Source: an uncultured Bryobacterales bacterium
Lineage (GTDB): Bacteria > Acidobacteriota > Terriglobia > Bryobacterales > UBA6623
Reading direction: 5' to 3'
DNA: 64,000 nt
Assembly (NCBI GenBank): GCA_958295955.1
Contig: OY282420.1
Coordinates: forward strand, 726,236 to 790,235
Positions 42,501-48,500 of the stretch are shown here, piece after piece; within the stretch, counting starts at the first letter, position 1; each line of letters opens with the position of its first letter. The position numbers were made by a program.

Positions 42501-45500
42501 GACCGCAAAGGCCCCGACGGCCGCATGGGGCATCCGACAGAGAACCACCCGCTGCGGGCGGGCAAAGGCTCGGCCTACGAGGGCGGCGTGCGCACGCCGG
42601 CGATCTATTACTGGCCGGGAGTGACGCGGGCGGGGTCGGTGAGCGCCGAGCCCGTAATTTCGGCGGACATTTACCCGACCGTTCTGGATATCGCCGGCGT
42701 TGCGGGAACGCCCGAGCACAACGCGAACGTGGACGGCGTCAGCCTGGCTCCGCTGCTGCGGGACGGGTCGGCCCCGCTCGGCCGCGAGGCGTTGTATTGG
42801 CACTATCCGCACTATCATTCCGGCGGGGCGACGCCGCATTCGGCGGTCCGCGCCGGTGACTGGCGGCTGGTGGAATTCTACGAGGACGACCGCGCCGAGC
42901 TCTACAACCTGAAGAACGATATCGGCGAGGAACGCGACCTGGCGGCGGAAATGCCGGAGAAGACGAAGGAACTGCGGCGCAAGCTGCGCGCTTGGCGCGC
43001 CGCGGTCGGGGCGCAGGAACCGACTCCCAATCCGGACTACGATCCGCGAGCGGAATGATGGGCCGGTAACTCCCCGCAGAGGGATAGCGCCTCAATGTGT
43101 GACACGCGTTCGATGACGGGCAAGGTCGTATCGCATTACCGCGTTCTGGAGCCTCTCGGCGAGGGCGGGATGGGCGTGGTGTACAAGGCCGAGGACACGC
43201 GGCTGAAACGCACGGTTGCGTTGAAGTTTCTGTCGTCGGAAGTGACCGGCGGCGGGGAATTCAAGGAACGATTCCTGCGCGAGGCGCAAGCCTCGGCCGC
43301 GCTGGACCACCCGAACATTTGCACCGTCTATGAAATCGACGAGGTCGAGGGGCAGACCTTTCTGTCGATGGCCTTTCTCGAGGGGGAAGCGCTGGACCGC
43401 ATCGTCGAGAAGGGGCCGTTGCCGCTCGACCGCGCGATTGCGATCGCCGTGCAGGCGGCGGAGGGACTTGCCGCGGCGCACGCCCAAGGCGTGGTCCACC
43501 GCGACGTCAAGTCGGCGAATATGATCGTCCGCGAAGACACGGCGGGGCGGCCGGTCGTGAAGTTGATGGACTTCGGGCTGGCTCAGATGAGCGGCCGCTC
43601 GAAGCTGACGCAGGTCGATACGCGCTTGGGCACGGTTGCCTACATGTCGCCCGAGCAGACGCAGGGCGGCACGGTGGACCGGCGCAGCGATCTCTGGTCG
43701 TTGGGCGTGGTGATTTACGAAATGGTCGCCGGGGAGTTGCCGTTCAAAGGCCACTACGACCAAGCCGTCATGTATTCGATTCTGAACGAGGAGCCGGCGC
43801 CGCTCACTTCTCTGCGGGGCGGCGTTCCGATGGAGCTCGAATGGATCGTCGAGAAGTGTCTGGCGAAGAACGCGAACGACCGCTACCAGAACGGCCGCGA
43901 GTTGGTCGTCGATCTTGAGCGTTTGCAGCGGCGGATCGATTCCGGAAAATCGGTCGTGCAGCCGCTGCCGGCCGCGGGCAGGACGGCGGTCGGCATACCG
44001 GCGCAGGCCGCGCAGCGCGGAACGCCGTTGCCGGCTGTTCTGGAGACGCAGGCGGCCGGGGAGGTTGCGGGCGCGGCGCCGCGCAGCGCCGACCGCTTGC
44101 GGATGCTGCGTCTGGAGCGGAGGGTGAAGGCGTTGGCCGCCGCGGCGGCGGTGTTGGCCGCGGCATTGCCGGCGACTTGGGCGTTGCGGTCCGGAGCTTC
44201 GGAATCTGCCGACGAGCCGCTGCGCAAGTTTTCGTTGCGGCCGGCGAACATTCTCGAACACGGGCAGAGCATCGGACACTTGGCGGTTTCCCCGGACGGC
44301 AGGCAGATCGCCTTTACAACCACCGGTTCGCGCGGGGCGTTGTGGCTGCAATCGCTGGACCGGCTGGAGCCCCGGCAAGTCGAGGGGGCCGAGGACGCCC
44401 GGTTCGTCTTTTGGTCTCCGGACAGCCTTTCCATCGGGTTTACGACCGACCGCTCCGTGAAGAAGGCGGCTTTGCGCGGCGGTTCCGTTACGACGCTTGC
44501 CGAGATCGGCACAAGGTTCTTCGGCGGCGCGCCTGCCAGTTGGAGTCCGGACGGGAATTCGGTTCTCCTGGGCCACGCCAACGGGTTTCCGTTCGAGATT
44601 CCGGCGCTTGGCGGGACCCCGAAACCGCTGTTCGATCCCGGGACGGGCGAACGCCCGGGCTACGTCCGCGCTCCGCAGATTCTCGAGGATTCGCGCGGCC
44701 GGCGGTTGCTGCTCTATTCGCAGCGCACCCTGGACGGCGAGACGATCATGATGCGCAGGCTGTCGGAGGACGGAGTCGGCGCCGCGGTGCGGCTGGCCGA
44801 GGGAAGCTATCCGACCTATTCGAACACCGGCCACGTTCTGTATCAGCCCTCGTCGGCAACCGCGGCGCTGTGGGCGCTGCCGGTTTCGCTGGATGAGGCG
44901 CAGGCGGTCGGCGAGGCGTTTCCGATTGCCGAAGACGGCAGCGCGGCGTCGGTTGCGGAAAACGGAACGCTCGTCTATCTGGACAATCCGTTCGCCGGGC
45001 CGAAGCAATTGGTCTGGCTCGACCGCTCGGGCGAGCGGGTCGGCGCAATCGGCAAGCCGCAACCCTGGATCATGGCGCCGCGGGTGTCCCCCGACGGCGC
45101 GAAACTGGTCGTCTCGGCAGGCTCCGCGCAGGTGCTGAACGTATGGGTTCACGATGCTTCGCGTCCCGTGATGAACCGCTTGAGTTTCGAAGACGGCGAA
45201 GAGACGGACGCAATTTGGTCTCCCGATGGGACCCGCGTGGCGTTCGCTCGGCGAGGGTCTCCCGATGTATTCGTTCAAAACATCGGCGGGGGGGGCAAGC
45301 AGCGGGTGATTTTTTCCGCTCCGGGAGATTTGCAGCCGCTCGACTGGTCACGCGATGGGCAATTCATTTTGTTCCGCATGCGCGTCCGTCGGGGCGCGCC
45401 GGGGCCCGGCGCTGCAAGAAAAGACGGGGCCGGACAGGAACGCGGCGACATGATCATGGATAGGTTGATGGAGAATTCCGTCGCTGCAAGAAAAGACGGG

Positions 45501-48500
45501 GCCGGACAGGAACGCGGCGGCGCGGGAATCTCTTCCGGGATCGGCTATCTCCGACAGGTTCCCGACGAGGAGCGCTGGGAGGCGCAGCAGTTCCTTGAAG
45601 CCGGGCGTTTCATCGCCGACGGCGCGGTGTTTTCCCCTAACGGCCGGTACGTAGCTTACGTGAGCAACGAATCCGGGGAATTCGAAGTTTATGTGAAGCG
45701 GTTCCCGGCGACGGAGGAGCGCTGGCAGATTTCAACGGACGGCGGGGGCGAGCCGCGGTGGAATCCGAACGGGCGGGAATTGTTCTTCGTGCGCGACGAG
45801 ACGCTTTACGCGGCAGCGGTCGGCACGGAGCGGAATTTTACTGTTGGCGAGACCGGCCCGCTGTTTTCCCGGGCGAGCTTGAGGCGGTCTCGGCGGTTTT
45901 CTTCGTACGATGTCGGCCCCGACGGGCGTTTTGCCGTGGTTGATCTGGCCGAAGGACCGCCGCAGCCGGCAATCCGGGTTGTCCTCAATTGGTTTGCGGA
46001 GTTTCAGCCCCGTTAAATTCGGAAGCGCGCGCCGGACTTCGTTTATGCTTATGCTCATGCCTTTGCCCGTGCGTTTCCCGGCGTCGTTTTTCCTGTGCTG
46101 CCTTGCGCTGTCCGCTCAGGTCGATCAGCAGCGTCTGAACAATGCGGCCGCGGAGCCGCAGAATTGGTTGACCTACAACGGAAGCTATATGAGCCGGCAT
46201 CACAGCGGGCTTACGGGCATCGATCTTGCCAACGTCAAAGATCTGGAGCTCCGCTGGGTGTACCAGGCGGCCTCCACGGACAAGTTTCAGACGACTCCGC
46301 TGGTTGTGGACGGCGTGATGTATCTGACCGAGCCGCCGAACAAGCTGGTGGCGCTCGACCCGTCTTCCGGCCGTGAATTCTGGGTTTACGAGCACCAGTT
46401 GCCGAGCCGCATCTATCCCTGTTGCGGGGCCGTCAACCGCGGCGCGGGGATGCTGGGGAATACGCTTTATTGGGGCACGCTCGACGCCAAGCTGCTGGCG
46501 GTGGACGCCAAGACCGGCCTCAAGCAGTGGGAGACGACCGTCGTCGAGGATTACGAACGCGGCTATTCGCTGACGGTCGCTCCCCTGATCGTCAACGACA
46601 AGGTGATCGTCGGCACCGCGGGCGGCGAGTTCGGCATTCGCGGGTTCCTGGCGGCGTACGACGCCAAGACCGGCGAGGAAGTCTGGAAGTTCCATACGAT
46701 TCCGGGTCCCGGCGAGCCCGGGCACGAAACCTGGGAAAACGACGCCTGGAAGACCGGAGGCGGTTCGATCTGGCTGACGGGTTCGTACGACCCGGACTTG
46801 AATTTGACGTATTGGGGCGTGGGCAACCCCTCGCCGGACTGGAACCCCGACGTGCGTCCGGGCGATAACCTCTACACCGACTCGGTGATCGCGCTCGACG
46901 CCGACAGCGGCGAGTTGAAGTGGCATTTCCAGTTCACGCCCCACGACGAGTGGGATTGGGATTCGGTGCAAATCCCGGTGCTGGCCGATCTCGAATGGCA
47001 AGGCGAGATGCGCAAGCTGATGCTGTGGGGCAACCGCAACGGCTTCTACTACGTGCTGGACCGCGAGACGGGGAAATTCCTGCTGGGCAAGCCGTTCGTC
47101 AAGCAGACCTGGGCCGCCGGGTTGGACGAGGACGGGCGTCCGGCGAAGATTGCCGGCAGGGGGCCCAGCAAGGACGGCACATTGACTTGGCCGGGCGTTC
47201 AGGGCGGAACGAATTGGTACGCGCCTTCGTACAGCCCCGTTACCAACCTGTTCTACTTGGCGGCCTGGGAAGGGTATTACGGCATCTATTACAAGTGGGA
47301 TCAAAAATACGAACCCGGAAAGCGCTATCTGGGCGGCGTCCCGCAAGGGGTGATTTCGTCCACCACGCGGAGGCGCTTCATGAGCTTCACCAAAGAAGAC
47401 GGCTACGGCGCCGTGCGCGCCTTGAACCCCTTGACCGGCGAAAGGGTTTGGGAATTCGCCATGACCGACGTCAGCGACAGCGGGCTGTTGACCACGGCGA
47501 GTAATGTCCTGTTTTCGGGCAGCCGGGAAGGTCATTTCTTCGCCCTCGACGCGCGCGACGGGAAATTGCTCTGGCAGCGCTATCTCGGCGGGCAGATCGC
47601 CGCCTCGCCGATTACCTATGAAATAGACGGGAAACAGTTTGTAAGCGTGGCTTCGGGCCATGCAGTTTTTGCTTTTTCGCTGCCGCGGTAGCCGCCGAGC
47701 CGTCCCGCGGGCGCGCATGGATGCGCCCGCATCGTGTACTCTGAGAAAAGAAAAGGCTGGCGAATCGGCTTTTTGCCCGTCGCGGGCGTCTATTCAGGCA
47801 GCGAATCTACGCATAATCTGCAAATTTCCCTTTTTTATTTTTCGTTGTTGCGCAAACATGTCGTGTGATACTATCTCAATAGTGCGGGCGGCGGCAGTCC
47901 TGGGACTGTTGCCGTTCTCGGGCGTTGTCGGCGCCGCGCCTGTCGCCTCGGCAGAGGCGGACGTTGCGCGCTCGTATCTCGCACGGCGTTTGGAAGTCCG
48001 CGAGGACGCAGCGACCGGTAGGTTGGTCCGTCAGGTCCGCTACCGTCGAGGCGCTTCGCCAAAGCCGGCGGCCGGCAGGCGGCGCGGAACAGACGGTTCG
48101 GTTGTCCAAGGTCTTGATTTCGATCGTCTGATCCGTGACATCGGTAGCCGCTACGGCGTGGATCCCAAGCTGATCCATGCCGTGATTCGGCAGGAGAGCA
48201 ATTACGACCCGTTTGCGGTTTCGTCCAAAGGAGCGCTTGGGTTGATGCAACTGCTGCCGTCCACGGCGGAAAGGTTTGGGGTGAAGGATGTTTTCGTTCC
48301 CGCCGAGAACATCCAAGGCGGAGTAAAGTATCTCCGCTACTTGATGGACCGTTACCCGGGGCAAGCCGCGCTGGTTCTGGCGGCTTACAACGCGGGCGAA
48401 GGCGCGGTGGATCGGTACGGGGGCATCCCGCCGTACCGGGAAACCCAAGACTATGTCGCCCGCATCGCCAAACGGTATGGCCCTTCAAGAGAAAGCGCGT

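Follow-up and report, generated by a model that had tools for sequence, protein, structure and literature searches.

The 64,000-nucleotide stretch of DNA analysed here (the window) comes from an uncultured bacterium of the Bryobacterales (GenBank assembly GCA_958295955.1, contig OY282420.1, positions 726,236 to 790,235 of the forward strand). At 43095-46016 on the forward strand it contains a gene for a Ser/Thr protein kinase with a transmembrane segment and a PD40/TolB-like beta-propeller, as described from the open reading frame (ORF), its translation and the Pfam matches of the protein (Pkinase, 3e-48, N-terminal; PD40, 1e-22, in the C-terminal PD40/TolB-type propeller). The propeller part of this gene is interrupted by a short repeat-insert-repeat module, here called M3. 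A repeat scan of the whole window identified two further perfect two-copy repeats of the same architecture, M1 and M2, which were missed in an earlier note that described M3. Here we describe the structure of the three modules and their presence or absence in strains and relatives, and weigh the mechanisms that may have created them.

M3 consists of two forward-strand copies of a 38-bp sequence, CGCTGCAAGAAAAGACGGGGCCGGACAGGAACGCGGCG, at 45410-45447 and 45482-45519. The copies show no mismatch and the sequence occurs nowhere else in the window; in shuffled sequence such a match was found in 0 of 100 shuffles. The 38 bp are the maximum perfect repeat, and the neighbouring bases of both copies differ on each side. 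When one mismatch is tolerated the repeat becomes 42 bp long and starts at 45406 (the 4 bp upstream agree at three of four positions, CCGG/CCGT). The copies are separated by a 34-bp insert, ACATGATCATGGATAGGTTGATGGAGAATTCCGT (45448-45481), with a GC content of 41%, which has no counterpart elsewhere in the window on either strand, down to 11-mers. The coordinates and the sequence in the earlier note were exact. Its statement that M3 is not a simple tandem duplication also stands, because the insert shares nothing with its flanks.

One repeat copy and the insert together add 72 bp, or 24 codons, with no stop. The kinase ORF remains open, as the earlier note had also said, and encodes 973 aa with the insertion and 949 aa without it. 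The translation across the module reads ...GAARKDGAGQERGDMIMDRLMENSVAARKDGAGQERGGAG..., in which the insert with its junction bases encodes DMIMDRLMENSV. In an AlphaFold model of the kinase (shallow alignment, mean pLDDT 62), residues 765-812 have a pLDDT of 22-25 and no secondary structure and form a loop between the strands at 757-763 and 814-821. M3 corresponds to residues 772-809, wholly inside this loop. The loop region is of low complexity, and its length and sequence vary across orthologues. By the model, M3 is located in a disordered, length-variable loop of the propeller. One strain (L003 13548-16452) has the kinase predicted as two separate ORFs: one of 783 aa, closed by a TGA that lies within the 34-bp insert but in a different frame, and one of 188 aa, which begins at the ATG of the insert (MIMDRL...). 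The split is due to a genuine upstream frameshift or to an error in the consensus.

Six orthologues of the kinase with 74-85% identity (P0002-P0007) have exactly 24 residues fewer and read ...PG-A(A/G)RKDGAGQERGG..., which is one repeat copy with no insert. The segment is absent from all 13 orthologues and relatives at 53-85% identity (P0002-P0014). Closer to the window, in the 90% cluster of the nearest match, the 24 residues are present in eight proteins and exactly missing in three (P0123, P0133 and P0134; 949/943 aa). A locus about 99% identical to the window and from the same ENA metagenome assembly (L004) has a precise empty site, ...GGGGCCCGG[38-mer]GCGCGGG..., with the 38-mer in single copy and no insert. 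The occupied site is identical base for base in L001, L003 and L087, the last of which derives from a circular contig of 4.48 Mb. M3 is also present in P0122, P0125, P0127, P0129 and P0131, with an I to S replacement inside the insert in P0129. In all, M3 was seen in at least five separately assembled contigs. M3 is a derived and recent insertion. Both of the comparisons proposed in the earlier note came out as it expected: the orthologues lack exactly one repeat copy and the insert, and the insertion is polymorphic among near-identical strains.

M1 (14266-14372) is flanked by a glyoxalase gene (13812-14198, reverse strand) and a PhoD-like gene (14521-16404, forward strand), in the promoter region from which these two genes diverge. 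Its 36-bp repeat copies (14266-14301 and 14337-14372), found by the repeat scan, enclose a 35-bp insert (14302-14336) with a GC content of 77%. The sister-strain locus L085 lacks exactly 71 bp here, that is, one repeat and the insert.

M2 (34361-34479) straddles the junction of two reverse-strand genes that encode an RraA-like protein (33689-34378) and a peptidase of family U32 (34469-35371). The repeat is 37 bp long, again from the repeat scan. Copy 1 (34361-34397) holds the ATG of the RraA-like gene (CAT, 34376-34378) and copy 2 (34443-34479) holds the stop codon of the peptidase gene (TTA, 34469-34471). Both genes are therefore intact. The empty site is found in a sister species (L093, 88% protein identity in RraA; the neighbouring locus L002 has 88-90% DNA identity), where the segment is present once and 10 bp separate the two genes. 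The M2 insert (34398-34442, 51% GC) is 45 bp long in the window and in L001 and 55 bp long in L003 and L004. Comparison of its tandem structure among strains traces the difference to a 10-bp unit, TTCGC(T/G)TTCC (TTCGCKTTCC; 34404-34438 in the window), which is present in three versus four copies and in which the order of T and G differs. The insert kept evolving after integration, through slippage. It was probably 35 bp long originally, with two 10-bp units, if the reconstruction is correct.

The three modules share a common geometry. The perfect repeats are 36, 37 and 38 bp long in M1, M2 and M3, with inserts of 35, 45/55 and 34 bp and unit lengths of 71, 82/92 (72 + 10n) and 72 bp. No sequence relation was found among the three inserts, among the three targets, or between the inserts and the rest of the window (both strands, down to 11-mers). 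The inserts are probably heterologous DNA, unrelated to one another and to the window and diverse in GC content (77, 51 and 41%). Each module has a comparator in which the target is single-copy (L085 for M1, L093 for M2 and L004 for M3). Strains that are 99.0-99.3% identical differ in the combination of modules that they carry. Contig s344 is without M1 (L085), and the P0122 kinase, on a contig of equal size, has M3; in contig s7130 M2 is present and M3 absent. The insertion events are therefore independent and recent, and they are apparently ongoing in this one species.

Within the sampled loci, the modules are confined to this lineage. A set of 80 loci from Bryobacterales and other phyla, 1.33 Mb in all, contained none of them, and plain tandem repeats were the sole matches there; the Bryobacterales control loci came from the search for kinase relatives and, among the matches listed, are only distant relatives (at most 49% full-length identity, higher just on kinase-domain segments). 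None turned up in the non-overlapping sequence of the sister species either (about 37 kb, L002 and L093), and shuffled sequence gave zero modules. A tolerant scan of the window for older, decayed modules (at least 28/34 identity, spacing 45-140) likewise found none.

The window contains repeats and variable segments of other kinds. An ORF on the forward strand (40225-40812) that encodes a 195-aa protein with no Pfam match has an in-frame tandem repeat of 57 bp (40636-40764; 2.3 copies, 94% matches). Its copy number varies among strains: L003 has one unit fewer, L001 and L004 have one unit more and L087 differs by 39 bp. A second repeat (1704-1816) has a 40-bp unit in 2.8 copies with a palindromic core (TTAAAGGCTGCCTTTAA). 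It separates the end of an unannotated 564-aa ORF from the start of a SoFic-type Fic gene. It was rejected as a CRISPR array as spacers are absent, and may be an operator array. The Fic gene is part of a strain-variable defence island in the first 9000 nucleotides (1-9000), with SoFic (PADLOC, 5e-118), a specificity subunit of a type I restriction-modification system and a 1327-aa protein with just an N-terminal helix-turn-helix. In L085 (15132-20387) this content is replaced by a SIR2_2 protein and a 601-aa protein. An AT-rich intergenic segment of 113 bp (36482-36597) is present in the window and missing from L003; it has no flanking duplication and is therefore not an indel of the same kind as the modules. 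In the sister species (L002 535-6254 and L093 1-5348) synteny with the window is lost close to the genes for the SpoU methylase and Sua5, where an island encodes an rve transposase, an N6/N4 DNA methyltransferase and a phage-type integrase.

For a direct duplication to surround an insert, strands must have been joined at staggered positions and the gaps then filled. In the modules the stagger (36-38 bp) and the insert (34-36 bp, with the M2 insert at its reconstructed length) are constant across three unrelated sites, which argues for a protein that measures both (a ruler). The sizes shared by the three modules make a ruler-type integrase far likelier than a single chance event. Among well-described reactions, only the integration of spacers by Cas1-Cas2 has such an outcome. 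Several CRISPR types (I-D, I-G and III) usually combine repeats of 36-37 bp with spacers of 34-36 bp. Integration by Cas1-Cas2 places a repeat-length duplication around a spacer-length insert, with ruler mechanisms that set the repeat length (PMC6895254). Off-target integration into non-CRISPR DNA has been documented in vitro (PMC6698737, PMC6895254). In E. coli it can seed new arrays, according to the summaries of Nivala et al. 2018 (bioRxiv 10.1101/148544, PMC7054753, PMC6698737).

Ectopic spacer integration by Cas1-Cas2 is the best explanation of the modules, although the enzyme is deduced from geometry and precedent and we consider the chances of this reading about even. Under it each module would be the product of one integration event. 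Spacer-sized heterologous DNA of about 34-36 bp would be joined to both chromosomal strands at nicks with a stagger of 36-38 bp, and gap repair would then copy the 36-38 bp between the nicks and leave a direct duplication. Cas1-Cas2 would act at ordinary chromosomal sites rather than at a leader-repeat junction, and the products would be single repeat-spacer-repeat units. Only insertions that do little harm would be seen: M3 is a multiple of three in a loop, M2 falls at a gene junction and M1 lies in a promoter region. The location of three survivors at positions of minimal damage suggests that there were more events, which were removed by selection.

Several observations weigh against this explanation. 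No cas gene or CRISPR array was found in the window by Pfam, PADLOC, Rfam and repeat scans, and no cas1 or cas2 in the strain loci examined. Three surviving events in 64 kb suggest a rate that seems high for an off-target side reaction. The three targets have no leader-repeat-like motif in common in any orientation, although three sites are too few for such a comparison, and at a permissive threshold the target of each module is unlike any Rfam CRISPR repeat. The M2 insert is now 45-55 bp long and its origin at 35 bp is a reconstruction. A protospacer source for the inserts was not found in IMG/VR, JGI metagenomes, or phage or plasmid collections. These searches used 24-mers, 21-mers and 17-19-mers in IMG/VR, the cores of the M3 and M1 inserts in the JGI metagenomes, and BLAST against the phage and plasmid collections, and they returned chance-level matches of 17-24 nucleotides without extension.

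Two of these matches were considered as sources and rejected. A 24-mer match in L086 falls in an ORF that, as read from its translation, resembles an RND/MMPL-type transporter, and it does not extend. The last 20 nucleotides of the M3 insert equal the first 20 nucleotides of a low-GC viral contig (L092, IMG/VR UViG_3300023716_000055). This contig begins inside the match and the other 14 nucleotides of the insert lie beyond it. The match is a 17-mer seed with 3 further nucleotides, about as expected from 4 distinct random 17-mer matches (5 loci), and is probably due to chance. The Cas1-Cas2 origin proposed in the earlier note is thus sustained in part. The geometry, the two additional modules and the empty sites favour it; the lack of cas genes and an array in the window, of a protospacer source and of a shared target motif does not.

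The alternative that survives best is an undescribed enzyme that makes nicks staggered by about 37 bp, coupled to the ligation of short fragments. It may be an integrase or nuclease of non-CRISPR origin, or the modules may come from breaks at paired nicks that Ku/LigD end joining repaired with captured filler DNA. The structure of the modules needs just staggered cuts, fill-in and an insert, and such an enzyme would be consistent with a window that contains no cas genes and with an event density that is unusually high and lineage-specific. However, no known system other than Cas1 gives target duplications of 36-38 bp, end joining with filler DNA is not expected to repeat an insert length of 34-35 bp three times, and the proposal is without a candidate gene. 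We consider it possible but doubtful.

Replicative template switching (similar to FoSTeS/MMBIR) is unlikely. The nascent strand would copy the 38 bp, jump to about 35 nucleotides elsewhere, return upstream and copy the 38 bp again, and a repeat-insert-repeat would result with no need for an integrase. In its favour, the M1 insert is host-like at 77% GC and resembles high-GC coding DNA, and three of four nucleotides (CCGG/CCGT) agree directly upstream of each M3 repeat copy. But a search of both strands of the 64-kb window, down to 11-mers, found no donor for any insert, the inserts of M3 (41% GC) and M2 differ from the host in composition, and near-constant lengths of duplication and insert are unexpected in three events. 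Indeed, template switching and the undescribed enzyme both account poorly for the constant sizes.

An artefact of assembly or sequencing, with a collapsed or chimeric M3, is very improbable. All genomes are metagenome-assembled and several are from one sample (ERZ19489113), but the empty and occupied alleles were assembled separately within one sample. M3 is identical in the window and three other loci and is present in five of the related kinase proteins, one with a substitution inside the insert. We know of no long-read error type that produces a perfect duplication plus insert of 71-72 bp. Empty orthologues, the empty site in L004 and occupied sites that are identical across separate assemblies exclude both an artefact and the ancient protein repeat that the earlier note had set against its own reading. 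There is practically no chance that M3 is such a repeat, or that it began as a simple tandem duplication and diverged afterwards, for although the region is a low-complexity loop of variable length, the orthologues with 74-85% identity and some strains with 99% identity have one copy and no insert, no distant relative carries the segment, and the repeats are 100% identical in DNA around an insert unlike either flank.

It has been proposed that new CRISPR arrays originate by off-target spacer integration, and that such integration is a hidden burden of adaptive immunity, yet evidence for it outside engineered E. coli is thin. The present case resembles a wild population observed while the process is under way, with several independent repeat-spacer-repeat units that are polymorphic among 99%-identical strains and have exact empty sites. 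The survivors show what selection tolerates: extra codons in frame within a loop, a junction of two genes that the duplication rescued and an insertion in a promoter region. Should Cas1-Cas2 be responsible, the modules would be a natural example, at several sites and at the level of a population, of something known mainly from engineered E. coli. It would then become possible to measure in nature how often ectopic integration occurs, which targets it prefers and what fitness filter its products pass, and a new source of short in-frame protein insertions would have been identified. If the genome proves to be without Cas1, the modules point to an integration mechanism that is new. Only tentatively, we envisage a high-rate process that scatters spacer-sized DNA over the whole chromosome of a wild Bryobacterales population. 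This might be an adaptation module that no longer has its array or leader specificity, which seeds new CRISPR loci and protein loops, or an undescribed, CRISPR-independent integration with a stagger of about 37 bp.

The modules can be compared with several known systems. Like transposable elements, Miniature Inverted-repeat Transposable Elements (MITEs) and casposons, they are insertions between direct target duplications. Target duplications are 2-15 bp long in typical IS elements and 14-15 bp in casposons, whereas those of the modules are 36-38 bp. The inserts are only 34-55 bp long, share no sequence, have no terminal inverted repeats and each occur once, and a transposon or MITE was therefore rejected. 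Tandem duplication in protein loops, of which M3 is reminiscent, also adds in-frame residues to a surface loop, and the window has true tandem arrays with units of 57 and 10 bp. In the modules, in contrast, the copies are split by unrelated DNA and are not head-to-tail.

In canonical CRISPR adaptation a repeat is duplicated and a spacer inserted, and the sizes are fixed by a protein complex and ruler elements (PMC6895254). The modules share this outcome but are located in three different targets of ordinary genic or intergenic DNA, with no leader, array, adjacent cas genes or match to an Rfam CRISPR repeat. A canonical array was rejected on these grounds: the three repeats are mutually unrelated and are host sequence. 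The closest likeness is to the neo-CRISPR units produced by off-target Cas1-Cas2 integration in E. coli. In both, a spacer-sized insert is flanked by a repeat-sized duplication of ordinary chromosomal DNA, and the units are single, away from any array and contain mutually unrelated inserts. The E. coli units arose with overproduced Cas1-Cas2, and the natural examples in the summaries cited above are just circumstantial. The integrase of the modules described here is a putative one, but the modules themselves are natural, three in 64 kb, polymorphic in a wild population and, in one case, in frame within a coding gene.

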